From Candidatus Poribacteria bacterium (GTDB lineage Bacteria; Poribacteria; WGA-4E; JAJDTR01), in assembly GCA_965222225.1 (NCBI GenBank), contig CBDCTK010000002.1:2688001-2752000 (forward strand): a stretch of 64,000 bases of DNA, given 5' to 3'. Each line of letters starts with the position of its first letter. Positions within the stretch are counted from its first letter, which is position 1. Positions 7,174 to 47,763 of the stretch are shown here, piece after piece. The notes beneath the pieces were generated by a model. It was not told the DNA's origin. It did no database searches and saw only the letters and a list, made by a program, of their open reading frames with translations. Position numbers and translations under genes: made by a program.

Positions 7174-9615
7174 ATGTCTAATTTTGAGAGAGACGAACAG
7201 TATTGGGATAGCCACTTTAAGAACATGTTTGGCGAAGTATTTGTTCCCTTTGAGTTTCAACGCAAGGTAGCAGAACATCTTCTAAGCGGACGAAATGTGA
7301 TTTTACAAGCCCCAACAGGAGCTGGCAAAACGAAAGCCGCTTTGTTTCCGTACTTGTTGGCTCAACAGGAAAATATACAATTTCCTCGAAAGTTGATTTA
7401 CACTACTCCTATGCGAGTCTTGGCAAAGAACTTTCACACCGATTTCAAAGAATCACCAATAGGGCAACAGACGTGCCTCAAAGCGGAAATCCAGACGGGT
7501 GAAAATCAAGATGACCGTCAATTTCGTAGCGACCTGATTTTCACGACTATCGATCAGGTGTTGAGTAGTTTTCTTAACATCCCGTACGCGCTGGGGTTGC
7601 GTCAAGGTAACGTCAACGCTGGCGCAGTCGTCGGCGCGTATTTAGTTTTTGATGAATTTCACTTATTCGATCCTGATACCTCGTTGGGAACTGTGATTGA
7701 AATCCTGAAGATGCTCAACGGTATCACGCCGTTTTTACTAATGACTGCCACTTTTTCAGAGGTGCTTCTTGAGCGTTTGAGCGAATACTTTAACGCGGAA
7801 ATCGTGCCAGTGACAGAGGCTGAACTTAAACAAATCCCTTCTCAGCAAGGAAAACGCCGTGAGTATCGGGTTAGCGGGGGAACACTTTCGGAGAACGTAG
7901 ACACGATTATTGCGCAACATCAACAACGCAGTATCATTATCTGCAATACGGTGAAACGGGCTCAGAATATGTTTCAATCACTGCAGAGCAGTTCGCAGCG
8001 AGGTACTGATACGGAAGTATTACTTTTACACTCCCGTTTTCTGAAGGAACACCGAAAAGCCAAAGAGGACATGATACGCTGTCGTTTCAAACGAGACGCG
8101 GGACTCGACGATGTAATTTTGGTTGCGACGCAAGTGATTGAAGTTGGGCTAGACATTAGCTGTGAGAATCTGCACACAGAACTGGCTCCCGCAAGCGCAA
8201 TTTTACAGCGCGCGGGGCGGTGCGCGCGGTTTGAAAACGAATCTGGAACAGTGACAATCTATCCTATTCCACCTACGACCAACGGTTCACCAAATTATGC
8301 CCCTTATGATAAAGAAACTTGTGAAGCCACGATGGCGGCATTTCAACACCGAAACGGAGGTGTGCTAGGCTTTGTAGCAGAGCAAGAGGTTGTCAACGAA
8401 GTCCACCGCGAAAGCGATGAAAAAATTTTGGCAGGTATTGAGACACGCCCAATACGCAGTCGTATATCAGAAGCGATTTCTGGACAGGAACTAGGTCTTG
8501 CCCGTGAATTGATTCGCAAGGATGACTCGCGTATGTTGCTCGTACATGATGAACCCGAAACACTTGATAAGCCGTTTCGCGTTGAAGGTTTCAGCCTATA
8601 TCGCGGCACACTGTTTGGAGTGTGGGATGAGCTTCAACAGGCGGCGCAAGAAAAGGAGCTGGGTTGGTCTCTGAAGTATCCTAAGGAAATGGAAGACAAC
8701 TCGCCAAACAGTCGTACTACCATTGCCTATGAGTGGCATGAGGCAAAAGAAAAGAAAGACTTAGGTATTTCTCCACTGTTTGTAGTGCATCCAAAACTGG
8801 TTAAATACAATACCGAGATAGGTTTCTGTCTTGAAGCAGGGACGACACCTTGTCCACTAAGCGTACCTGACGATGAAACCACGCAAGAAGCTGACTGGGG
8901 CAAAGGCTACTATCGCGAGACATACACCGAACATATCCAACACCTGTTGAATGCATATCAATCTGGTCTAGCGACTGAACTAGATTACGCCGCCGCGCGG
9001 CTTGAACAGAAGTTGGAGGCATCTGAAGGCGCCGTCGATCGGGCAGTAAGGCTCTGCATTGCCCTCCATGATGTCGGGAAACTGACGGTTGGTTGGCAAG
9101 AATGGGCGCACAAATGGCAAAAAGAAATTGGTGAACCTGTCGATGAAAATTACATGGCGGCGCATACCGATTATGACCGTAGCAATCTTGCCATACGCGA
9201 AATAGAAAAGCAATTCCGCGTCAAAGTCAAACGGCCAGGACATGCTGTTGAAAGTGTTTGGGCGGTTGCACCACTGCTAGCAAGAGTCTTAGGCAAAGAA
9301 CAGAAAAATTTGGCGGAAGCCTGTTTCACTGCTATTGGACGACACCATGCACCGCGCGCAAAGGACTGTTCACCCTACACCCTGCACCCTTATGCGCCAT
9401 CTGAGATCGAAACGGTTCTAAAGAAGATAGGAAGTTTAGGGCAGGAGACTCAACGACACTTCGAATCCATCTGTAAGCACAAGGAACCTACAAAGCCTTT
9501 TTCCCATTTTGTCCAGCCGTCTAACACGCTTGCACTACTAACCTATTTCCTGATTGTGCGCGCTCTACGGCTTGCTGACCAAGAAGCAACCTCAAAAGTT
9601 AGCAGAAGGGAGTAA
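7174..9615 (+). CDS. cas3: Cas3 helicase with C-terminal HD nuclease domain
   Basis: APTGAGKT, DEFH, TAT, QRAGRCAR helicase motifs; C-terminal EHI...LHDVGK...HH...LADQ HD domain. Confidence 0.93.
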   Translation: MSNFERDEQYWDSHFKNMFGEVFVPFEFQRKVAEHLLSGRNVILQAPTGAGKTKAALFPYLLAQQENIQFPRKLIYTTPMRVLAKNFHTDFKESPIGQQTCLKAEIQTGENQDDRQFRSDLIFTTIDQVLSSFLNIPYALGLRQGNVNAGAVVGAYLVFDEFHLFDPDTSLGTVIEILKMLNGITPFLLMTATFSEVLLERLSEYFNAEIVPVTEAELKQIPSQQGKRREYRVSGGTLSENVDTIIAQHQQRSIIICNTVKRAQNMFQSLQSSSQRGTDTEVLLLHSRFLKEHRKAKEDMIRCRFKRDAGLDDVILVATQVIEVGLDISCENLHTELAPASAILQRAGRCARFENESGTVTIYPIPPTTNGSPNYAPYDKETCEATMAAFQHRNGGVLGFVAEQEVVNEVHRESDEKILAGIETRPIRSRISEAISGQELGLARELIRKDDSRMLLVHDEPETLDKPFRVEGFSLYRGTLFGVWDELQQAAQEKELGWSLKYPKEMEDNSPNSRTTIAYEWHEAKEKKDLGISPLFVVHPKLVKYNTEIGFCLEAGTTPCPLSVPDDETTQEADWGKGYYRETYTEHIQHLLNAYQSGLATELDYAAARLEQKLEASEGAVDRAVRLCIALHDVGKLTVGWQEWAHKWQKEIGEPVDENYMAAHTDYDRSNLAIREIEKQFRVKVKRPGHAVESVWAVAPLLARVLGKEQKNLAEACFTAIGRHHAPRAKDCSPYTLHPYAPSEIETVLKKIGSLGQETQRHFESICKHKEPTKPFSHFVQPSNTLALLTYFLIVRALRLADQEATSKVSRRE

Positions 9616-9621
9616 AAACCG

Positions 9622-11415
9622 ATGTACCAACAGACTTATTTCGTTGATAAGCCGACAGGCACATTTGCCGATGTTTGTTCAGCTTTCGGATTGGCAACTG
9701 TCCTAGACGAATTCTTACGACGTGCTCTCGGTGAACACAGTTTTCGCACTGTCAAAATAATGGATCAGGGGACGACGTACGCGATTGAACTCACCCCCAT
9801 AATGCAAGAAGAATGGGTCGAAAGTCCAAATTTCTTTTCCCCTATTCCCTTCATCAAGACAGGGAAAAATAGTGCAACGATGCCAGAGGAAATTTACAAG
9901 ATTGAATACGACGAAGAGAAACAGATTTACGATGAATATAGAGAAGCCCGTCGAATTCTGGGGCAAACGATTCATCGCGGCGGAAGCGAGAGCCAAGGCG
10001 ATGCCGCTTTACCGGACAAACCAAAACCCAACTATCCGGTTTGGCAGAAAATCAACATGATGTCGGGGATCAGTTCTTACAATGCTGCTGTGGGCAACTG
10101 GTTTGAAGCTCGTGGGGAATTCGCAGAGCTTCTCCATCTTCTTCTTGCACTTCACGCCACCACGCCTAATCCGGTTTCAGCCTGTGAGCAAGAATGGAAA
10201 AAACTCAAAAAGGCGGGGAATCTTTCTGGAAAAGACCGCTTGAATATGCTGCAAATATTCAACCCGAGTACCGGAAAAGGCCAAAACGCCACAAAAGCAA
10301 ACAGCTTGTCGATGGGTAACGTAAGCAACTTTTGGTTGTGCGAATACATAAAGATGGTCGGTTTCTACCGTTGCGCGTTACCACGATTCGTGTCAGTGAA
10401 ACCTGGCCAGCCACCGACGGACCGAAAAACCTTCGCATTAGCGCCTATCAACATGACACTTGCGGCGCACAACGACATTTTCAATAGCTTCCGTGACACA
10501 GTGAGAAGCAATTACGCAATAAAGTCTGACATCTTTGCGGCGCTCAACTACACACAATGCTTTCTGAAATACTCCGAAGAAGCTCAGGAATCTGATGACT
10601 TATGGGGTGACGGTCCCCATGACTTTGTCGCAGGAATGCACACCGCCTTTTATAAAGATCTCGGCAACTCGTCCGCCGTGATGAACCTTTCCTTTATCAA
10701 TCTACCACGCTGGATGAACGTTCAAGATATAGATGATGTGCAGATATACCGCGAGATGATAGCGGAACACCTGCAAATCATAGGAAGTTTAGAAGAGGAA
10801 CGGAGTGAAGGCTTTCAACTGCTCCAACACTATCGGGACTTCCTATCCGGTCACGATTTCACGGCGTTCTTTGAGTTCACAGCGAAATACCCAAACTACC
10901 TGCTTAATGCCTTAGCGAAGGAACATTTCTGGGTTAAGCCGTTGAGCGCAACTAATTTGAGGAGGTTACTCATGAGAAACGAAAAAAAACTCACGCCAAT
11001 TATCAAAAGCGAGGGTTTTCAAAATATCGCTAGAGCCATCCGCCAAAGCACCGTGACGCTACAGTATATGGCGAGAAGCGGAAACCCCCCGTATGACATT
11101 CGATATGGACTCGGACAAGAATTGCGACGCAAGGCGAACTATCCGGACGAGTTCATTCAGGAATTAGGTGATTTTCTACACTCTTTCAACGCGGAAAATG
11201 CCCGCGTAGCGGAAGTTTCATCCGAAAGGGACCGGCGGTTCCGGCGGAAAAGCGTCCGTGTAGATGACATCACCGAAATCGTTCAATTGATTGATGAACA
11301 CGGGGCCCAAACCGTCTGTCATTTGCTGCTAGCTTTCGGATACGCTTCTACCAGCCACGATGAGGCGCCGACAGACGATGCCACCTCCCACACCCAACAA
11401 GGAGAAGGAAAATGA
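9622..11415 (+). CDS. cas8: Type I Cascade large subunit (Cas8-like)
   Basis: 597 aa between cas3 and cas7; contains FNPSTGKGQN; assignment is mainly positional. Confidence 0.7.
   Translation: MYQQTYFVDKPTGTFADVCSAFGLATVLDEFLRRALGEHSFRTVKIMDQGTTYAIELTPIMQEEWVESPNFFSPIPFIKTGKNSATMPEEIYKIEYDEEKQIYDEYREARRILGQTIHRGGSESQGDAALPDKPKPNYPVWQKINMMSGISSYNAAVGNWFEARGEFAELLHLLLALHATTPNPVSACEQEWKKLKKAGNLSGKDRLNMLQIFNPSTGKGQNATKANSLSMGNVSNFWLCEYIKMVGFYRCALPRFVSVKPGQPPTDRKTFALAPINMTLAAHNDIFNSFRDTVRSNYAIKSDIFAALNYTQCFLKYSEEAQESDDLWGDGPHDFVAGMHTAFYKDLGNSSAVMNLSFINLPRWMNVQDIDDVQIYREMIAEHLQIIGSLEEERSEGFQLLQHYRDFLSGHDFTAFFEFTAKYPNYLLNALAKEHFWVKPLSATNLRRLLMRNEKKLTPIIKSEGFQNIARAIRQSTVTLQYMARSGNPPYDIRYGLGQELRRKANYPDEFIQELGDFLHSFNAENARVAEVSSERDRRFRRKSVRVDDITEIVQLIDEHGAQTVCHLLLAFGYASTSHDEAPTDDATSHTQQGEGK
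10972..11415 (+). CDS. Putative internally translated small subunit (Cas11), 147 aa, in frame with cas8
   Basis: GAGGAGG at 10959-10965 precedes the in-frame ATG 10972 (MRNEKKLTPII); predicted helical C-terminal region. Confidence 0.6.
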   Translation: MRNEKKLTPIIKSEGFQNIARAIRQSTVTLQYMARSGNPPYDIRYGLGQELRRKANYPDEFIQELGDFLHSFNAENARVAEVSSERDRRFRRKSVRVDDITEIVQLIDEHGAQTVCHLLLAFGYASTSHDEAPTDDATSHTQQGEGK

Positions 11416-12410
11416 GCGATAACAAAGCGGTTTATTCCCTCACCATCTGTGGTCAAGCCACAATTGATATGCACTCCCTCAACAACGAAGGAAGCGAGGG
11501 AAACCAGATTGCAACCCGAATGGTCAACGTCTACGATGAGGCGGGAAAACTCGCTGCCGTGAACGCAATTTCAGGCGATATGTTCAAACACATTCAAGCC
11601 GAACATCTGTTTCATCTGAGCAGAAATAGTGGACTGAAGCTATGTTCGGGGTGCCAAAGATTCAGTGCAAACCGTATCCTTGATGACGAGACTTTTGTCG
11701 ACAGCTTCGAAAAAAACACCCCCGACGAGGAGATAGTTGCAAAGATGGTGCAAATGTGTGCCATTGATGACGTTGAAGGCATTCTTGTTACAGCGAAGAA
11801 CAAATCCACGCCGCGCAAGTCGATTGTGGAGTTTGGTTGGGTCGTCGGCATACCCGAGTTGAACACGACAGATAACTACTTCCATGTCAAGTATGTGTCA
11901 GATAGTGGAGCACAAAACGCAGATGACAGCGACAGCGCTGATGGCGGTGGAGCTAATCTTGGACAGAACATCTTCCATCGTCCCGCGAATTCGGGGATTT
12001 ACGCAGTTGTCGCAGGGGTTGAGGTTTCACGGCTCGGTTTCAACGATATAAGTCAGGCTTATGCCATTGATGACCAGGAGCGAAATCAACGATACAAAAC
12101 GTTGATTGAGAGCCTACTTTGTACTTTTGTCGATCCAAACGGAGCCATGCGAAGTGCTCAGAATCCCCATCTCGTTAACTTTGAAGGGGTTGTCAGTCTA
12201 AGCACTAAGATTTTGCCCGCGCCAACAATCAGCCCGCTTAACGCCGAATATAAGGACGAAATCAGACGTGTTGCAGACGCGCTCAATCAGATTGAGACGG
12301 ACGCAATTGAACGCCACGAGTTTGACTCACTCGGCGGTTACGCTGAAGTGATGGCAAACCTTGCCAATACAACTGTACCTTTCAAAATCAGTTATAACGG
12401 AGGGAACTAA
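11412..12410 (+). CDS. cas7: Cas7 backbone subunit, DevR/Csa2-like
   Basis: MHSLNNEGSEGN, AISGDMFKH and RKSIVEFGW motifs. Confidence 0.88.
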   Translation: MSDNKAVYSLTICGQATIDMHSLNNEGSEGNQIATRMVNVYDEAGKLAAVNAISGDMFKHIQAEHLFHLSRNSGLKLCSGCQRFSANRILDDETFVDSFEKNTPDEEIVAKMVQMCAIDDVEGILVTAKNKSTPRKSIVEFGWVVGIPELNTTDNYFHVKYVSDSGAQNADDSDSADGGGANLGQNIFHRPANSGIYAVVAGVEVSRLGFNDISQAYAIDDQERNQRYKTLIESLLCTFVDPNGAMRSAQNPHLVNFEGVVSLSTKILPAPTISPLNAEYKDEIRRVADALNQIETDAIERHEFDSLGGYAEVMANLANTTVPFKISYNGGN

Positions 12411-14757: not shown

Positions 14758-15002
14758 AATTTGGGAGCCTCTGAATCAATCTTTGTCACGGAAATTACCT
14801 CACTGTAGGAGCGATCAAGTAAGCGAATAGCGCACGCGATAGAGATCTTCTCCAGGTCGCGATTCCCTACTAAATTATATCCGAAATTCAAGGTTCACGC
14901 AAGGATTTAGACCGCCCCGTATGCATGTCTCTGAAAGAAACCGAGTTTTGTGGAAAAAACTCGGTTTCGTTGAACGTCCGTTACTCCTGTAGGAGGAAGA
15001 AA

Positions 15003-16112
15003 ATGAACCAACTCACTATCTCGGACTACGGTACATCTCTCGGCAAACGCTCGGAGCGCGTCAGCGTGCGGTACCGCGGGGTGGCGCGAGAGAAAGAGGA
15101 GCACGCTCTCATGGATCTGGATCAGATTGTCATCGCCTCGCGCGGGGTTAGCTTGTCGTCAGACTTGATTGAAGCCTGCACCGAGCGCGGGATCGAAATC
15201 TCGTTTCTCAGTTTCAGCGGCAAACCGTACGCCAAACTCAACAGCCCTTCGTTGACGGCGACCGTCATCTCGCGGCGCGAGCAACTCGCCGCCTATCACG
15301 ATGAGCGCGGGGTAGAGATTGCCAAGCGGTTCGCGGCGGGCAAGTTGCGGAATCAGATAAACCTGGTGCGCTATTTCGGCAAGTACCGCAAGAAAAGCGC
15401 GCCCAAGAGGTACGACGAACTGGCGGAGCGGGTTACCAAGATTGAGGGACTGATGGGAGATATTCGTGCCCTTCAAGCGCCGAAGGATGAAGGCAACGGG
15501 GTGTCGCCGATTGACGCCGCCCGCCCGACGTTGCTCAACCTTGAGGGGCGGGCGGGGGCGCTCTACTGGGAGTGCGTGCAACGGCTGCTGCCTGCGGGGC
15601 GATTCACGACACGTGAACATCAGGGCGCTGCCGATGATGTCAATTCGCTGCTCAACTACGGATACGGGATACTCTACTCGCAGGTTTGGAGCGCACTCTC
15701 GCTGGCTGGACTGGAACCTTTTGCGGGTTTTCTTCATGTCGATCGCCCCGGCAAACCGTCGCTGGTGTTGGATTTCATTGAGGAGTTCCGCCAACCGATT
15801 GTTGATCGGGTGGTGTTTGCGATGATTAACAAGAAATTCAGGGTTGAATGGGATGAGCCGGATGACGACGCCGCCAAATCCGCGCACCAGTCGGCAAAGC
15901 CGGAAGCGGATACCGACGTGCAGACGCAGCGGTATCTGAGCAAGGGCACGCGGCGTGCGCTCGCCGACCGGGTGTTGGAACGGCTTCAGGAGACGGAGCG
16001 GTTCGAGCGAAAAGACCAGAAGTTGTGCAATATCATCCAAATTCAGGCGCGTCATCTGGCGATGTTCCTGCGCGGGGAGAGGGATTATCAGTCATTTGTC
16101 TGTAGTTGGTGA
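15003..16112 (+). CDS. cas1: Cas1 integrase
   Basis: LEGRAGALYW, NSLLNYGYGILY, GFLHVDRPGKPSLVLDFIEEFR; GGAGG before ATG 15003. Confidence 0.96.
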   Translation: MNQLTISDYGTSLGKRSERVSVRYRGVAREKEEHALMDLDQIVIASRGVSLSSDLIEACTERGIEISFLSFSGKPYAKLNSPSLTATVISRREQLAAYHDERGVEIAKRFAAGKLRNQINLVRYFGKYRKKSAPKRYDELAERVTKIEGLMGDIRALQAPKDEGNGVSPIDAARPTLLNLEGRAGALYWECVQRLLPAGRFTTREHQGAADDVNSLLNYGYGILYSQVWSALSLAGLEPFAGFLHVDRPGKPSLVLDFIEEFRQPIVDRVVFAMINKKFRVEWDEPDDDAAKSAHQSAKPEADTDVQTQRYLSKGTRRALADRVLERLQETERFERKDQKLCNIIQIQARHLAMFLRGERDYQSFVCSW

Positions 16113-16263
16113 GGGGCGGGAAACCGATCAACCGAGTGGATAACGAGCAGGATAAACTATCGCCTTCGCTATTCGCTCAGTTGATCGATAGAGATCCTTT
16201 TTTTCTTGAAAACTCGGTTTCTGCTGACCACTAGTCACTGAGCACTGGCAACTGTGTTTTGCC

Positions 16264-16515
16264 ATGCACACGTACGTCATCTACGACATCGTCGAAGATC
16301 GAATCCGCAAGAAGATTGCGGATGTGTGCCTCGACTACGGCTTGAAGCGGTTTCAATACAGCGCTTTCTTGGGTGACATCAACACAACGCGACGCCGGGC
16401 GTTGGATGCAAAACTAACGCAGGAATTTGGGGACGCGGAGGGAAAGATTGAAGTCCTCTCCGTGTGCGCGAAAGATTTCGACCAACGCATTGTTATCGGA
16501 GACGCCGAAAGATGA
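16264..16515 (+). CDS. cas2: Cas2
   Basis: YVIYDIVEDRIRKKIADVCLDYGLKRFQYSAF. Confidence 0.95.
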   Translation: MHTYVIYDIVEDRIRKKIADVCLDYGLKRFQYSAFLGDINTTRRRALDAKLTQEFGDAEGKIEVLSVCAKDFDQRIVIGDAER

Positions 16516-17084
16516 ATATACGGGTCAGCGACATCAAGCAGTACTTCTACTGTCCGCGCGTGGTCTACCACACCTACTTCACTCCGGTGCACCGTCCGAC
16601 GACGCATCCGATGGAACTCGGCGCCCTCGAACACGAGGTATTGAGCGTCTTGGAGCGCCGCCGGACGCTTGCCCGCTACGGGCTTGAGGCTGGCAGCCGG
16701 AAATTCCACGTTTCGCTTCATGCCGAGTCGCTGGGATTGACCGGCGTGCTTGACCTGCTTATCGAGACCGAAGCCGGGGCGTTTCCCGTGGAGTTCAAGA
16801 GCACGAGACAACGACTCGACCTGAACGCGAAATGCCAGTTGACAGCGTACGCGATGATGGTGGAGGAGTGCCTCGGCGTCACGGTGGCTCAAGGGTTTAT
16901 CTATCGGATTCCCACGGAGCGAATCACGCCGGTGACGATTTCGGAGGGGCTGCGTGAGAAAACGCGCGGCGCGATTCGGGATATCCGACGAATGCTGTCG
17001 GAGGAGTGGATGCCTCCGCCAACGCCACAGCGCGGGAAATGCGTCGAATGCGAATTTCGGCGATTCTGCGCGGATGTGTTGTGA
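16512..17084 (+). CDS. cas4: Cas4
   Basis: YCPR, GVLD..PVEFK, QLTAY and C-terminal CVECEFRRFC Fe-S cysteines. Confidence 0.93.
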   Translation: MNIRVSDIKQYFYCPRVVYHTYFTPVHRPTTHPMELGALEHEVLSVLERRRTLARYGLEAGSRKFHVSLHAESLGLTGVLDLLIETEAGAFPVEFKSTRQRLDLNAKCQLTAYAMMVEECLGVTVAQGFIYRIPTERITPVTISEGLREKTRGAIRDIRRMLSEEWMPPPTPQRGKCVECEFRRFCADVL

Positions 17085-17499
17085 GGCAGCCAACTAAAAT
17101 CGTTGTGTTTCGCAAATCCGTTTTCTGCGGAAAATGTGGGTCGATTTGCGAAATCTTTGTAAAAGCGTGAAACGCAGGCGGGACGCGAGATGCGCCTCTC
17201 TGTTCGCGGATAGTTGTGAATCTTGCGGAATGACGAGAGGGCTTTTCGCATTAATTTCACCCCTATTTTCGATAGACTGGGTCAAGGTTCTGCGTACTCC
17301 ATACGATGTTTGGGGACAAATCGGCTATTTTCGAAAATCCGCGCGTAAACCAGTCGAATACCCATGAACACTGAATTCTCAGCGCTTGTGCCGTTTGAAA
17401 TTGACAGGGCAACGCCGATGTGTCAAAATTACACGTATGATGTACAAACGCAGGTGGTTTCTGCGTTTGGAGGAGTTTCGGCTACTGATCGCGAGGTCG
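17085..17499 (+). promoter_or_regulatory. CRISPR leader
   Basis: Non-coding stretch between cas4 and the first repeat; TTGACA at 17401 with CAAAAT 17 nt downstream. Confidence 0.6.
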
Positions 17500-19958
17500 G
17501 TAGCAACCATTGCCGCGATGAAAAGCGGACTGAAAGTGACAAACGTTGGATAATATGTTATACTATACTAGCAACGTAGCAACCATTGCCGCGATGAAAA
17601 GCGGACTGAAAGTATCACGCATCATGGTAGGGATTTTTCTTTGTGCGTGTAGCAACCATTGCCGCGATGAAAAGCGGACTGAAAGGATACAAAGAAGAGC
17701 CAACCAAAAGAGACATCGTCCTCGTAGCAACCATTGCCCCGACGAAAAGGGGACTGAAAGGTCGAAGTGGGACGGATATATATTTGATTGGTTGAGTAGC
17801 AACCATTGCCCCGATGAAAAGGATCAAGCGACCGGACAGGGAGCGCGATAGCGTTCCGTCAAATGACCGATTAGGGAGCGCGATAGCAAGCATGTAAGAG
17901 TTATCTGGGCGCCAACAGCGGCACCTAGCTCACGTAGTTACCTTTGCTCGGATGAAAAGGAATGTCTTCAAGTGGGACAAGAAGATTTCTATCGCATTCG
18001 CTATTCGCTCATTTGATCCCCGACGAAAAGCGGACTGAAAGTGCTCAACGCGGATGTGCATATCGCTATTGAGCGCAGTAGCAACCATTGCCGCGATGAA
18101 AAGCGATCAAGCGAACGGATAGTGAGTGCGATAGAGATTCCATAGAGTTCCTTCAAGCGACCGGATAGGGAGCGATCAAAGGAATGAATAATGACTGCGA
18201 TAGAGATTTCATAGAGTTACCTCAAATGGAGTTACCTCAAGCGACCGATTAGGCAGTAAGGCTTTCTATCGCATTCGCTAATCGCTCATTTGATCCCCGA
18301 TGAAAAGCGATCAAGCGAACGGATAGTGAGTGCGATAGTAAATCCCGTGCGATAGAGATTCCATAGAGTTCCTTCAAGCGACCGATCAAAGGAATGAATA
18401 ATGACTGCGATAGAGTTCCGTCAAATGACCGATTAGGGAGCAGGGCTTTCTATCGCCTTCGCTAATCGCTCAGTTGATCCCCGATGAAAAGGATCAAGCG
18501 ACACCGGACAGGGAGCGATCAAAGGAATGAATAATGACTGCGATAGAGTTCCCATAGAGTTTCCGCAAGCGACCGATTAGGGAGCGGGCTTTTCTATCGC
18601 CTTCGCTATTCGCTCAGTTGATCCCCGACGAAAAGGATCAAGCGAACGGACAGTGAGCGCGATAGCAAGCATGTAAGAGTAATCTGGGCGCCAACAGCGG
18701 CACCTAGCTCACGTAGTTACCTTTGCTCGGATGAAAAGGAATGTCTTCAAGTGGGACAAGAAGATTTCTATCGCCTTCCCTAATCGCTCAGTATTCGTTC
18801 GGTTGATTGCTATTCGCTTGCTTGAGGGATAATCTATCGCGCTCCTTATTCAGTCGCTTGATCCCCGATGAAAAGGATCAAGGGAGCGAATAGCGACCGC
18901 GATAGCAAGCATGTAAGAGTTATCTAGGCGCCAACAGTGGCACCTAACTCACGTAGTTACCTTTGCTCGGATGAAAAGGAATGTCTTCAAGTGGGACAAG
19001 AAGATTTCTATCGCCTTCGCTAATCGCTCAGTATTCGTTCGGTTGATCGCTATTCGCTTGCTTGAGGGATAATCTATCGCGCTCCTTATTCAGTCGCTTG
19101 ATCCCCGATGAAAAGGGGACTGAAAGAGCGGCTAGTACCCTGCCGACCCGTAGGCTGCTTTTGTAGCAACCATTGCCCCGATGAAAAGCGGACTGAAAGG
19201 CCACTTGCAGTCAATGAGTAAGCATAGAAAGCCAGTAGCAACCATTGCCGCGATGAAAAGGGGACTGAAAGTCGTGATATGCGGCGCGGCTGGGATATTA
19301 CAAGCTGTAGCAACCATTGCCGCGATGAAAAGCGATCAAGCGAACGGATAGTGAGTGCGATAGTAAATCCCGTGCGATAGAGATTCCATAGAGTTCCTTC
19401 AAGCGACCGGACAGGAAGCAATCAAAGGAATGAATAATGACTGCGATAGAGATTTCATAGAGTTACCTCAAATGGAGTTCCCTCAAGCGACCGATTAGGC
19501 AGTAAGGCTTTCTATCGCATTCGCTAATCGCTCATTTGATCCCCGACGAAAAGGGGACTGAAAGGCCCAACCGTTAATCTCTTTAATCGGCTTAACGCCA
19601 GTAGCAACCATTGCCCCGACGAAAAGGGGACTGAAAGCGCGCAGCATCAACGATCTCCAGAGCGAGAAGTTGCGTAGCAACCATTGCCGCGATGAAAAGC
19701 GGACTGAAAGTCCATAAAAAGTTAGATGATTCCATACCAAAATTATAGTAGCAACCATTGCCCCGACGAAAAGGATCAAGGGAGCGAATAGCGACCGCGA
19801 TAGCAAGCATGTAAGAGTAATCTGGTCGCCAACAGCGGCACCTAGCTCACGTAGTTACCTTTGCTCGGATGAAAAGGAATGTCTTCAAGTGGGACAAGAA
19901 GATTTCTATCGCCTTCGCTAATCGCTCAGTTGATCCCCGACGAAAAGGGGGCTGAATG
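17500..19958 (+). CRISPR. CRISPR array, 37-bp repeat GTAGCAACCATTGCCSCGAYGAAAAGSGGACTGAAAG; 12 repeat positions, 11 spacers (35-39 bp); 4 repeats interrupted
   Basis: Repeats start at 17500, 17576, 17649, 17724, 17796*, 18078*, 19163, 19235, 19307*, 19601, 19674 and 19748* (* = interrupted); the last has a degenerate 3' end. Confidence 0.95.
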
Positions 19959-20839
19959 CTTCCTAATTCATCTTGCGCCATCTCAATTGAAATCTGCCCT
20001 GGATGAATCCGTCTATGAACGCAGATTAGATGCCATCTTCTTCAGTTCAATCCCCTCAAAATAGGCGAATCCCATTACGACGCCAATGAGATCGCCGCAA
20101 TTCAAAATTGAACCAAGCATGCTGCCGAAACCCCTTTGAGGTCGTAGGCAAGCGGTTCCCCATGCGCATCTGCCACAAACTGCGCCGCTGGCCCCAGCAC
20201 CTGCTGCCAACCAAAAGGAAACCGAATCCTATGTATGAATCGCGGCGGTTTTTAATTGACAACTCCACGCACGTATAGTATAATAGCGCCAACTCGGCGA
20301 TGCCGGTTAGAGATAGTCGCACACCTGTCGCTTCCGGTAATGAGCCGCCGAGAGGAAAATCCAATGTGTATTGTGTGCATTGCGTTCACCCGCGCATCCT
20401 CTAAATCTGTGCTATCAAAAGCTTCCACCGTCTTTGAAGAAGTGAACGCGCCTTCCGCGCATGGCGCTGAGTGTCAAACTTGTTCGCCTTTGCGCACGCT
20501 GTGTGACGCGAAATTAGTAATAAAACCTATGAGCAAATTGTCGAATCTGTGTCTAAACCGCTTTTCCGGTTCACCTGTTTTTGCCCCTTTTCCGCGTCGA
20601 ATTTGTCGGCACATGAGCGAATCTCGGTGGCATCCGGTCGCAGCGCCTGCCACTGTTTTTGGCAATTTTCGCAGTACGGCGGTGAACGAGGTAAAAGTTA
20701 TATTCGCAGTTTATCGCAGTTTATCGCACACTCAATCACGACGCCAAAACCATGTACGAAGCCACGCTACGACACGCTACGACGCAGTTCTCGAGTCGTA
20801 ACGCATTAACTGCGATACAGATTCCTCAAACCACTCTAG

Positions 20840-20985
20840 GATCAAGCGACCGATCAAAGGAATGAATAATGACTGCGATAGAGTTCCCTCAAGCGAGCGA
20901 TTAGCGAGTGCGATAGAGATCTTACTGCGATAGAAAATCCCGATAGTAGTTCCTGATAGAGCTCCCATGCGATAGTAGAGCCCGG
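20840..20985 (+). repeat. Nested hairpin micro-elements with stacked GCGATAG-tail remnants
   Basis: Three units followed by repeated (GCG)ATAG-tail fragments. Confidence 0.8.
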
Positions 20986-21487
20986 CGCGAGAGCATTCCT
21001 AATAAACCCTCCCCAAAAAATATCCACTAACCCCTGCTTTTTTCATTGACCACATTACACATGTATAATATGATGCCGACCAAACGGATATACCGATGAA
21101 TGAATACCGTACTCCCCGCATTGCCAAACTGTCCTGCTCGAACGGATTAGGTCTTCGTCTATGTGCGCACCGTGACTTGACCTTCAAAACAACGATCTTT
21201 TTCTCTTGTACCTATTTTGTACCTATTTGCCGGTAGGTGAACCCGCACTATCAATGAAAACTACTGAAGCAAACAATGTGAGCACCCTCTCGAAATCGCC
21301 GCTCCGTTCACATTCCTGTACCTCTTTCTGGTGCGGTATTTTTACAGAAAATAGGTACAACCACCGCCTAACCCACCCCAAATGGGTGCTGGATCAACTT
21401 TTTTGTACACGCATTCGATCAATCAGCTAAAATCAACCGACTGGATGGCGTGCAGGATTTTTATCGCAGTCGATGTCTGTTCCTTTA

Positions 21488-21784
21488 GATCCTGTTTGAA
21501 AAGTACAGTTTGTAGGGTGCGATCAAAGGAATGAATAATGACTGCGATAGAGATCCCCTGCGATCAACTGAGTGGATAACGAAGGCGATAGTCTTGTAGG
21601 GTGGGATCAAGGGAGCGAATAGCGATCAAGCGACTGAATAAGGAGCACGATAGAAATCCCGTGCGATAGAGATCCTACAGGTATGTAGCAGCCAACAATT
21701 ATGTAGCAGCCAACAATGAAAACATGAAAAAACTTTCTACAAATGACCAAAAATGGCTTTGCCACCGATTATTCAAACAGGTTC
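21488..21784. mobile_element. MITE (GA(G/T/A)CCTGTTTGAA TIRs, TTA duplication) carrying micro-elements
   Basis: tta-GATCCTGTTTGAA...TTCAAACAGGTTC-tta; internal sequence shared with 46220-46440. Confidence 0.75.
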
Positions 21785-23299: not shown

Positions 23300-23582
23300 G
23301 AAGGTTTCCGCGATTTCATCGTAGTGGGTTCTCTATTCGGTTTTCACGAGAAACGGAAAGGTCTATCGCCGTGCGAGATTATGGTGATTTTGTGCAGAGA
23401 TTACACGGATTAAGCTTGCCCAATTTAGAGCAAGATACTCTTGGGGAGGTCGATGGCTACGCTATCTATCGTCTGCAATTCGGGACATGCCGCGCCTATC
23501 CCAACGAACTCAAAACAATCCCGTTGAAATCGGTCTAGCTATGGAACCTGTGCCCGTGTATCGCCCGAAAAATACGTAAATC

Positions 23583-23611
23583 TGTGACATTTTGTGACAT
23601 TTTGTGACATT
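23583..23611. repeat. Tandem 10-mer TGTGACATTT x3
   Basis: Directly visible in intergenic DNA. Confidence 0.7.
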
Positions 23612-46719: not shown

Positions 46720-47763
46720 TAGGAGTTACGCAGTTGAGTGAAAATAGGTTATAATTTGAGTATGAATCCCCCTAAATATACTGACACTGACTATATTGAT
46801 TTCTTGGTAGCCGCTCAGAAAAGTTACAGTTGTCTTGAATCGGAAAAAGTTCAACCCCAAGCTGATAATCCTCCGGCTCACGATTCGATAACACGGCTCT
46901 TGCATCGAGAGGAACCCGATACTGGCAAACTGTGGCAAGAATCGAGAAATCAGGTGAAATTAGAATCCGGAATTTTAGTTATAGATGACTCGACTCTGGA
47001 TAAACCTTATTCACAAAAGATTGAACTCGTGACAAAACACTGGTCAGGGAAACACCACCGAGTTGTGAATGGGATTAACTTGGTCACTTTGCTCTGGACG
47101 GATGGCGATAGACATATTCCGTGTGATTATCGAATCTATGATAAAGCCAAAGACGGCTTGACGAAGAATGAGCATTTCCGCGCCATGCTTGAAGAAGCGA
47201 AAACACGCGGTTTTGCTCCTGAATGTGTGTGTTTTGATAGTTGGTATGCCAGTCTAAAGAATCTAAAAGCGGTGCGAGGTCATGGTTGGAAGTGGCTTAC
47301 TCGTCTAGCTGCCAACCGACTTGTCAGTAAAGATTATTCCGGTAACCGTCCGGTGAGTACGCTTCCGAGTGAATCAACAGGTACAATTGTCCATCTCAAA
47401 GGCTATGGATTGATTCGAGTATTTAAGGTTGACACTCCAGAAGGTGACATTGAATATTGGGCAACGAATGATTTACAGATGGACGAATTGACGCGTCTCA
47501 AATATGCCGAATGGTCTTGGACAATAGAAGAATATCATCGCGGGATTAAGCAATTTGTTGGCATTGAACGCGCACAAGTGCGCTCTGCTCGCACTCAAAG
47601 AAATCATATCGGTTTAGCGCTGAGAGCCTTTCTGAGAATTGAGCACTATTGCTATCATACCGGTATCAGTTGGTTTGATGCAAAACTCTCTATTGTCAGA
47701 GATGCGGTACGGGCTTATTTGGCACAACCTCTTTATACGCTTCAGCCAACTGCGTAACTCCTA
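46720..47763 (+). mobile_element. IS701-family insertion sequence (ISAba11-like ends)
   Basis: TIRs TAGGAGTTACGCAGTTG / CAACTGCGTAACTCCTA; 5-bp duplication TGTAT (46715-19, 47764-68). Confidence 0.88.
46762..47757 (+). CDS. DDE transposase, IS701 family
   Basis: IDDSTLDKPY, FDSWYAS, WTIEEYHRGIKQ. Confidence 0.9.
   Translation: MNPPKYTDTDYIDFLVAAQKSYSCLESEKVQPQADNPPAHDSITRLLHREEPDTGKLWQESRNQVKLESGILVIDDSTLDKPYSQKIELVTKHWSGKHHRVVNGINLVTLLWTDGDRHIPCDYRIYDKAKDGLTKNEHFRAMLEEAKTRGFAPECVCFDSWYASLKNLKAVRGHGWKWLTRLAANRLVSKDYSGNRPVSTLPSESTGTIVHLKGYGLIRVFKVDTPEGDIEYWATNDLQMDELTRLKYAEWSWTIEEYHRGIKQFVGIERAQVRSARTQRNHIGLALRAFLRIEHYCYHTGISWFDAKLSIVRDAVRAYLAQPLYTLQPTA

Follow-up and report, generated by a model that had tools for sequence, protein, structure and literature searches.

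Insertion sequences of the IS200/IS605 type and their miniature derivatives insert 3′ of a short specific sequence, in a fixed orientation and without duplicating their target. The right end of such an element itself carries a similar sequence, so that tandem head-to-tail copies are possible. For RAYT-type transposases (REP-associated tyrosine transposases, where REP stands for repetitive extragenic palindrome), activity on their own repeats has so far been hard to show. In the reports on REPINs (REP doublets forming hairpins), such doublets are moved by a single-copy IS200-like tyrosine transposase (PMC3116915, PMC3337134, PMC3733652). Here, we describe small elements bounded by REP-like units that interrupt the repeats of a CRISPR array in a window of 64,000 nucleotides from Candidatus Poribacteria. 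The source genome of the window, called G000 below, comprises 2 contigs and 5,698,352 nt (C2 is a contig label within it). Four of the elements share a cargo block. We consider it probable that this block forms the core in one subfamily of small non-autonomous mobile elements that home to CRISPR repeats and are moved in trans by a Y1 transposase.

The units of G000 resemble REPs in several respects. They occur as hundreds of short extragenic singlets, inverted doublets and mosaics, a Y1 HUH transposase gene of G000 is bracketed by inverted units, no target duplication is seen at the dispersed copies, and a GTAG tag is enriched upstream of units. They differ in that a single unit is not itself a strong palindrome, that the G000 Y1 protein scores under the cut-off of the RAYT model, and that one subfamily has a defined CRISPR-repeat target and a ~100-nt core, neither of which we found described for REPINs in the literature searched. 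Unlike the IS200/IS605 type, the elements here have long inverted ends and not two different subterminal hairpins.

A second group of relatives consists of elements found in CRISPR arrays. According to the respective sources, cyanobacterial Tn7-like transposons are autonomous, protein-coding elements that target CRISPR arrays at a fixed position in the spacer (PMC11837452), the phage PhiAP1.1 integrates into CRISPR repeats by an integrase and silences the downstream spacers (described in PMC11837452), CR_6/CR_7 of Anabaena 7120 is split by a 134-nt miniature inverted-repeat transposable element (MITE) (10.1101/2020.04.14.041012), and HqIRS37 lies in a spacer of Haloquadratum (PMC3119063). As far as these texts describe them, the Tn7-like transposons share with the elements of the window the specialisation on arrays, a safe and portable landing site, a fixed position and a presumed low host cost, whereas the elements here are ~0.2 kb long and non-coding, lie inside the repeat and remake its 3′ part. 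PhiAP1.1 likewise uses the repeat itself as its integration site, but it is a prophage and not a multi-copy miniature element. The MITEs in arrays are also miniature inverted-repeat elements, but they are described there as isolated events, one of them in a spacer, compared to 22 junctions in eight genomes here. In the open-access papers and bioRxiv preprints searched, we found no miniature element, whether of the REP/REPIN type or another, that is described with a fixed target inside CRISPR repeats or with a repeat-like core.

The array repeat of the window has 37 nt and reads GTAGCAACCATTGCC[C/G]CGA[T/C]GAAAAG[C/G]GGACTGAAAG; Rfam gives weak CRISPR-DR matches to it, under the gathering score. 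The 11 spacers are all unique and 35-39 nt long, three of them with 35 nt. The array and the elements inside it are arranged as follows.

17500..19957, + strand: CRISPR array with 11 spacers and 12 repeat starts, of which 8 belong to intact 37-nt repeats and 4 to interrupted ones
17796..17821, + strand: positions 1-26 (left half) of the repeat that copy 1 interrupts
17822..18021, + strand: element copy 1, with left unit GATCAAGCG...GCGATAG, one extra unit, core, and inverted right unit ...TTGATCCCC
17887..17987, + strand: cargo copy 1, made of CAAGCATGTAAG (17887-17898), a 35-mer (17899-17933), the 27-mer GTAGTTACCTTTGCTCGGATGAAAAGG (17934-17960) and AATGTCTTCAAGTGGGACAAGAAGATT (17961-17987)
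18022..18041, + strand: right junction of copy 1, GACGAAAAG then CGGACTGAAAG, which with the element's CCCC remakes a repeat-like hairpin and 3′ tail
18078..19126, + strand: one interrupted repeat with five head-to-tail elements and CCCCGAYGAAAAG(C) between each, the last two being those with cargo copies 2 and 3
18636..18866, + strand: element copy 2, cargo at 18666-18766, extra inverted units on the right side
18876..19106, + strand: element copy 3, cargo at 18906-19006
19307..19564, + strand: interrupted repeat with an element of the same unit family (~19333-19544) and no cargo
19748..19773, + strand: left half of the last repeat, which copy 4 interrupts
19774..19938, + strand: element copy 4, the simplest (unit, core, inverted unit), cargo at 19804-19904
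19939..19957, + strand: right junction of copy 4, GACGAAAAG then the degenerate terminal repeat tail GGGGCTGAAT

Two of the intact repeats have mismatched stems, at window 19163-19199 (CCCC...GCGG) and 19235-19271 (CCGC...GGGG). The stems of all other intact repeats are matched. Both chimeras come just behind the five-element cluster and may have been left by excision or by an exchange between repeats.

A preliminary description of this DNA had reported four copies of the cargo, at 17887, 18666, 18906 and 19804, which is the C of CAAGCATGTAAG in each copy. When window 17881-17985 (105 nt) was searched against the whole of G000 by blastn-short, the cargo block (~101-105 nt) gave exactly four full-length matches, all within the array, at window 17881, 18660, 19798 and 18900 with 100, 99.0, 98.1 and 97.1% identity, respectively. 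The next-best matches in G000 were 13-17 nt long. The four copies are therefore confirmed at 97.1-100% identity and occur nowhere else in G000, and the search revealed no non-CRISPR locus from which the cargo could have been drawn. The parse into CAAGCATGTAAG, 35-mer and 27-mer was also correct, with a spacer-sized segment (35 nt, compared to 35-39 nt for the array spacers) preceding a repeat-like one. The 27-mer matches repeat positions 1-27 at 22/27 for the CCCC/T variant and at 20 and 21 for the other two variants. We scored the 27-mer along ~11.4 million positions, both strands of G000, and only 21 sites reached at least 22/27: 12 are the repeat starts of the array, 5 are solitary repeats elsewhere, and 4 are the copies of the cargo. 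Unrelated sites among these positions all stayed below this level, with 4 unrelated or remnant sites scoring 20-21. The first 17 nt of the 27-mer agree with the repeat at 12/17, which has a per-position frequency of 1.1e-4. As another source of this pseudo-repeat, the solitary-repeat type GTTGCAGYCTATGCC... was considered and fits more poorly (20/27 by inspection, compared to 22/27 for the array type).

Four public sequencing runs from two studies were examined as assembled contigs, which carry no depth, strand or end information. For copy 1, contigs without differences cover the junction at 17731-17932 in X1 and at 17822-17932 in X3 and X5; the copy 2 region is covered at 18598-18711 in X1 and X3 and copy 3 at 18876-18977 in X3, again with 0 differences. 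Copy 3 carries three private single-nucleotide polymorphisms (SNPs) within the 35-mer. Since the junctions and SNPs seen in these contigs are copy-specific, copies 1-3 are not an artefact of assembly collapse or expansion, as far as contigs tell. The collapse of the four copies to one, which had been named in advance as a refuting outcome alongside a non-CRISPR source locus, was not seen, and distinct copies stand on separate contigs. Among the listed contigs, none spans the whole array and no DNA contig covers the cargo of copy 4. Many contig joints in these runs are units from elsewhere in the metagenomes.

The anatomy of the elements and their site can be read directly from the array. Each is ~165-230 nt long and non-coding and has at its two ends, in inverted orientation, a ~39-nt REP-like unit that is found throughout the genome, in agreement with the earlier observation that two inverted repeat units bracket the block; the terminal inverted repeats measure ~30 nt. 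Every element of G000 sits after repeat position 26/27, that is, after ...GAAAAG or ...GAAAAGC, at the boundary of the loop and the 3′ stem. The interrupting DNA opens with GATCAAGCGA...GCGATAG and closes with the inverted CTATCGC...TTGATC; after this come CCC, GAYGAAAAG and the remaining part of the repeat, and the right end of the element is CCCC plus GAYGAAAAG. At the junctions the ends are asymmetric, with (C)GATCAAG at the left start and GATCCCC at the right end. The left-junction motif, GAYGAAAAG(N)GATCRAG, has nine matches in the whole of G000, eight of them within the array, and all eight matches of the right junction TTGATCCCCGAYGAAAAG lie there. The spacers flanking the occupied repeats are all different, which argues that the element spread without segmental duplication.

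The same elements are present in related genomes. The comparison set comprised 159 genomes of the order, including 9 congeners of G000 as well as G015, a member of another family; these genomes are kin and thus non-independent samples, the majority of them metagenome-assembled. In G015, two repeats of one array hold the same element at the same repeat position, and these two copies are 93-94% identical to the G000 cargo over 106 nt and 90-91% over 153 nt. Their order is left unit, CAATCATGTAAG, 35-mer, 27-mer, the following 27 nt, right unit, and CCCC plus GATGAAAAG. The G015 repeat is GTCTCAACCTAT[A/G]CCGCGATGAAAAGCGGACTGAAAG, and the elements follow GATGAAAAG(C); its 5′ half differs from that of G000, while the 3′ 24 nt are identical. 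At both G015 insertions the left half is of the type local to G015, which means that no G000-type repeat came in together with the element. Between G000 and G015, the DNA of the glutamate dehydrogenase gene (gdh), which adjoins the G000 array, is 71% identical (83-84% within the genus), compared to 93-94% for the core and to 4/35 differences between copy 1 and the second G015 copy in the presumably unconstrained 35-mer. This suggests that the element is far younger than the split of the hosts and has spread horizontally.

Diverged relatives of the element occupy the same site in 6 of the 9 congeners (G009, G001, G004, G003, G005 and G007). We distinguish the core type of G000/G015, a type of G009/G001/G004 that is collinear with it, shorter cores in G003, G005 and G007, and elements made of units only. 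The alignment of the G000-type with the G009-type core scored 11, compared to 3.1 ± 1.5 for shuffled sequences (none of 2000 did as well). In most cores, GCAAGCATGTRA follows the left unit, and all CATGTRA-bearing cores read point in the same direction with respect to the repeat (four in G000, two each in G015, G004 and G003, and one each in G009, G001 and G005). In G000, the GCAAGCATGTRA motif is next to a unit only at the four cargo copies; GCAAGCATGT occurs at 12 other G000 sites, none of which adjoins a unit, and these are taken as chance. The left-junction motif was found at 18 sites in 7 of the 11 genomes of the family (0 for the reversed motif as control) and at 2 sites in 1 of the 29 genomes of G015's family (1 for the control). 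In all, 22 distinct left junctions were read, 17 of them with their own right junction ...GAT[C/T]CCC+GAYGAAWAG, and these 22 junctions hit one fixed repeat nucleotide in eight genomes. A pattern scan with CGGATGAAAAGGNANGTCTTC gave 13 metagenome loci, 10 loci on genome contigs and none in viral contigs; blastn extends only L065, which is the two G015-type copies, and L058, a G007-type element, both from the genome contigs. The pattern match at L059 (Candidatus Poribacteria) lies inside coding sequence and was rejected as chance.

The preliminary description had proposed that a spacer from the trailer end of this array, with its terminal repeat, was recopied locally. This does not hold, as the same block with its brackets occurs twice in another family behind a different repeat 5′ half (GTCTCAACCTAT...), and collinear diverged cores stand at the same site in the six congeners. 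The part of the proposal that the block multiplies without Cas1 agrees with our results. Integration by Cas1-Cas2 in the manner of casposons was ruled out, since there is no duplication of a whole repeat.

An explanation without any transposase is the main rival. It holds that gene conversion, template switching or unequal exchange copied one old doublet insertion from repeat to repeat over the 13-24 nt that repeats have in common (left CC[C/G]CGAYGAAAAG, right GAYGAAAAG[C/G]GGACTGAAAG), that its inside was reshuffled with other units, and that the transfer to G015 was an uptake of array DNA with short-homology recombination. The 240-nt pair of cargo copies 2 and 3 (90% identity) is a tandem duplication; the left-unit type and the T/A SNP of the 35-mer are found among the cargo copies in every one of their four combinations; the chimeric intact repeats at 19163 (CCCC..GCGG) and 19235 (CCGC..GGGG) point the same way, and so do the identical 3′ 24 nt of the G000 and G015 repeats and the fact that the elements always lie between two copies of GAYGAAAAG. 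The arrays of G015 and G005, with two and three occurrences of a spacer, indicate that arrays recombine. However, unique spacers flank all four occupied G000 repeats, which excludes spread by spacer-carrying exchange, G015 offers only ~13-14 nt of homology on the left, element types without shared cores use one insertion nucleotide in eight genomes, and hundreds of dispersed unit copies are beyond the reach of recombination within an array. We regard copying by recombination as an unlikely account of the whole pattern.

As separate observations on the relatives' arrays, the duplicated spacer of G015 lies at L002 434-470 and 868-905, and one spacer of G005 occurs three times (L068 1147-1185, 1223-1261 and 1371-1409). 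These repeated spacers show that segmental duplication does happen inside arrays.

The units themselves are a family of their own, with the ~39-nt consensus GGGATCAAGCGAgCGAATAGcGAGTGCGATAGAGATCCC. An nhmmer search at E<=1 gave 1127 hits in G000, of which 454 are strong and outside the array, and they occur as singlets, inverted doublets, tandem runs and mosaics. One such doublet lies among the cas genes of the window.

16119..16186, no strand assigned: minimal inverted unit doublet between cas1 and cas2

This doublet indicates that the units are a general extragenic repeat of G000. GTAG stands within 16 nt upstream of 123 of the 454 units (background 3%), and a CCCC-loop-GGGG hairpin precedes 72 of the 454. 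The family is present in 9 of 9 congeners, in 4 of 4 genomes of G015's genus and in the only genome of a third genus; none of the other 15 genera of the order has it (159 genomes searched).

We looked for an enzyme that could move the elements. The likeliest mobiliser would be an IS200-like Y1 (RAYT-like) transposase whose gene is bracketed by units.

G000 C2:3080258-3080728: IS200-like Y1 transposase gene, 157 aa

The protein matches Pfam Y1_Tnp with 84.4 bits, over the cut-off of that model, and the NCBIfam IS200/IS605 transposase model with 65.8 bits (cut-off 55), and its translation has the HUH (HIH) motif and the tyrosine in ..VRYIKNQ... Units lie around the gene in inverted orientation, at 3080208-3080244 (+) and at 3080831-3080864 and 3080932-3080963 (-), that is, ~15 nt from the open reading frame (ORF) at one end and ~100 and ~200 nt from it at the other. 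The CCCC-loop-GGGG hairpin also follows the right unit of this locus. A unit is found within 200 nt of the Y1 ortholog or paralog at 7 of 10 loci of the genus and at 0 of 2 loci in G015's genus. G000 has one match to the Y1 protein at E<=1e-10 and five Y1_Tnp-family matches in total. The transposase is unusually conserved: between families of the order, the protein is 80-85% identical. Searches of G000 for IS110-type and TnpB-type genes gave none, and an IS110/bridge-RNA type of element was ruled out for lack of such a gene.

In the mechanism that we propose, the Y1 (HUH) transposase would move the elements in trans; its gene lies between inverted units in the way that RAYT genes lie between REPs. 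We propose a strand-specific, duplication-free route that would use single-stranded intermediates and insert 3′ of ...GAAAAG. The GAYGAAAAG at the element's own right end would be the next target and would allow head-to-tail landing, and the renewal of this motif at each right end would explain the five-element cluster at 18078-19126. The right junction would remake CCCC-GAYGAAAA-GGGG plus ACTGAAAG, so that Cas6-type processing of the CRISPR RNA for the downstream spacer may survive; if this is the case, the element would be a low-cost parasite of arrays. Many units have a CCCC-loop-GGGG hairpin at their outer end, for which the hairpin of the repeat may be mistaken.

A different enzyme would be required if the elements were classical MITEs, in which a DDE transposase recognises the ~30-nt inverted ends and duplicates 9-10 bp, GAYGAAAAG[C], of a target that it prefers within the repeat. 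A direct repeat of 9-10 nt, GAYGAAAAG(C), does stand on both sides of the element; the flanking 10-mers are the same (10/10) in both G015 copies, and the 9-mers GAYGAAAAG are identical in 7 of 12 insertions. The long terminal inverted repeats fit such an enzyme, and DDE insertion sequences are numerous in G000 (49 PF01609 and 5 rve matches). On the other side, the flanking 9-mers are unequal in 5 of the 12 insertions, the junction ends are asymmetric ((C)GATCAAG compared to GATCCCC), and the single orientation of all cores read is unexpected for symmetric ends. A parent insertion sequence was sought among 45 DDE/rve transposase loci of G000, and none of them is bracketed by units at a fixed distance on both sides. 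At 19 inverted pairs outside the array, which need not each be single insertions, the longest flanking direct repeat is 0-3 nt. Taken together, these results make a DDE-driven origin very unlikely. One DDE insertion sequence lies in the window itself, at 46969-47628 (G000:C2:2734969-2735628), with a 339-aa frame and ~24 near-identical copies in the genome, and is unrelated to the units.

Several observations weigh against movement by the Y1 transposase. The Y1 protein scores 30.6 bits against the RAYT-specific model NF047646 REP_Tyr_transpos, under its cut-off of 80. The link of this enzyme to the elements is one of position, and it fails in G015, where the Y1 gene has no unit within 1.4 kb although the cargo is present. 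The closest unit is 670 nt from the Y1 gene in G012 and ~315 nt in G007, and none is near it in G004 and G008. The Y1 protein family is found in 102 of the 159 genomes of the order, far more widely than the unit family; genera without these units may pair the transposase with other repeats. The GAYGAAAAG(C) on both sides of the element leaves room for a cut-and-paste enzyme that makes 9-10-bp duplications. Finally, recombination among copies clearly acts as well and could explain part of the spread, given the tandem pair 2/3, the four-gamete pattern and the chimeric repeats. With these points taken into account, a mobile element that homes to CRISPR repeats and would be moved in trans by the Y1 transposase is still the explanation that we hold to be probable.

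The origin of the core is a separate question. We lean slightly towards a CRISPR origin, for which the half-repeat likeness is solid, the spacer size fits and the tail likeness is weak. In the first step of this history, an ordinary unit doublet would have sat in a repeat of a GTAGCAACC-type array. In the second step, another unit upstream would have become the left end, thereby trapping a remnant of a repeat tail, a 35-nt spacer and repeat positions 1-26/27. The order of 27-mer, decayed unit plus inverted unit, and CCCCGAYGAAAAG plus repeat tail has the shape of a minimal doublet inserted in a repeat (AATGTCTTCAAGTGGGACAAGAAGATT after the 27-mer resembles a decayed unit; cf. ATCAAGCGACCGGACAGGGAG), and the left unit, CAAGCATGTAAG and 35 nt occupy the place expected for the preceding repeat tail and spacer. 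The preliminary description's idea of a bracketed spacer and repeat agrees at its core with such a composite; the event would have taken place in an ancestor of the element and not in this array. Against the variable 5′ part of the repeat, the 27-mer agrees at 12/17 with the GTAGCAACC type of the window's genus and at 8/17 with the G015 type (by inspection), which suggests that the element arose in the lineage of the window's genus. In G007, the element has a 19/27 pseudo-repeat at the same place (by inspection), with only 8 nt before it compared to 47 nt.

Other results limit the support for a CRISPR origin of the core. The likeness of CAAGCATGTAAG to the repeat tail is without significance; TGTAAG, which had been read as a repeat end, agrees with TGAAAG at 5/6, weak alone, and belongs to the longer motif GCAAGCATGTRA common to these elements. 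The spacer parts of the G000-type and G009-type cores are marginally alike (99 of 2000 shuffles as good), and the repeat likeness of the G009-type core is not significant (435-1619 of 2000 shuffles as good).

In an alignment of the six copies of the core (four of G000 and two of G015), 8 of the 35 columns of the 35-mer are variable, as is 1 of the 27 columns of the pseudo-repeat, and the next 25 columns are all invariant. Judged by this variation, the 35-mer appears to behave as filler, and the right part of the core may be under constraint, perhaps as a portion of the element's right end. The same figures bear on the suggestion that processing of the array transcript turns the 35-mer into a non-canonical or regulatory guide RNA, and that selection for dosage amplified it. 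The 35-mer is spacer-sized, lies between repeat-like pieces and sits inside a transcribed-looking array with a promoter-like site in the leader. In addition, an RNA-library contig covers 19748-19912 (copy 4) with 8 differences, which is weak support and not proof of transcription since DNA can occur in such libraries. In contrast, the 35-mer is the most variable part of the core, the opposite of a conserved guide. The stretch before it has no repeat hairpin and agrees with the 8-nt handle at 5/8 (by inspection), and the pseudo-repeat lacks positions 28-37. Matches of the 35-mer in G000 are no longer than 14-17 nt, and no target was found for it in G000, the 159 genomes of the order, viral contigs, or phage or plasmid collections. 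An RNA structure of the core was not supported either: 31 pairs were predicted, with 0 compensatory changes and 3 pairs broken in 2 of the 6 sequences, the fold z-scores were -1.2 and -1.9, and Rfam gave no family for the core, only the weak CRISPR-DR matches on true repeats. A guide function is thus highly improbable.

The surroundings of the array are those of a type I system.

7174..12410, + strand: type I effector genes upstream, with cas3 helicase plus HD at 7174-9615 and cas7 (DevR/Csa2 type) at 11412-12410
14925..17084, + strand: adaptation genes adjoining the array, cas1 at 14925-16112, cas2 at 16264-16515 and cas4 at 16464-17084
17401..17429, + strand: promoter-like site in the leader, TTGACA-17-CAAAAT, a consensus match only

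The promoter-like site suggests that the array is transcribed from left to right; no promoter-like sites were found inside the elements. Outside the window, G000 has at least five solitary repeats of a sister type (GTTGCAGYCTATGCCCCGATGAAAAGGGGACTGAAAG), at G000:C2: 5054880-5055041, 5058690-5058864 and 5059528-5059566 and, on the minus strand, at 1310590-1310410 and 1309900-1309655. Four of the solitary repeats have a ~150-nt leader-like copy (TTTCGCAAAT..TTCTGCGGAAAA..ATTTGCGAAA) upstream, and small ORFs come after each; the leader-like sequence is also present in the window's own leader, at ~17108-17160. They look like modules of a leader plus a single repeat, or mini-arrays. Between the array and the glutamate dehydrogenase gene, dense mosaics of units and a variant unit (GATCAAAGGAATGAATAATGACTGCGATAGAG) fill window 20800-21000 and 21430-21690. 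A glutamate dehydrogenase gene also follows a decayed, unit-invaded array in G009 (L010) and in G003 (L070). Downstream of gdh, window 23560-23600 holds a short tandem run of GTGACATTTT (x3).

A stronger version of our explanation is that the REPIN-like element is a dedicated parasite or tolerated guest of arrays, which lands on the hairpin, repairs the 3′ part of the repeat, rides arrays between lineages and keeps a conserved mimic of the repeat for homing or as a Cas decoy. We consider this version quite unlikely. The landing hairpin would rest on the resemblance of GGGGATCAAG of the unit to GGGGACTGAAAG of the repeat. The near-invariant 27-mer and the next 27 nt would be needed for homing, or would be transcribed in the CRISPR RNA precursor and bind Cas proteins; such a mimic would act in the manner of RNA anti-CRISPRs.

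The array-specialised mobile elements described so far are protein-coding Tn7-like transposons, in spacers, and one prophage, in repeats. If our explanation is true, a 0.2-kb non-coding element that enters one repeat nucleotide in eight genomes would be a new case, and REP-type elements would be able to have a precise target. The element ends plus the repeat would give a testable substrate pair for a RAYT-like transposase. For array-finding software and for the linking of hosts and viruses by spacers, the elements would be a warning, since they split arrays and place pseudo-spacers inside them. The array would also be a natural test case for how far a type I array tolerates interruption, with an element that would remake the processing hairpin of the repeat and move between families of uncultivated symbionts.

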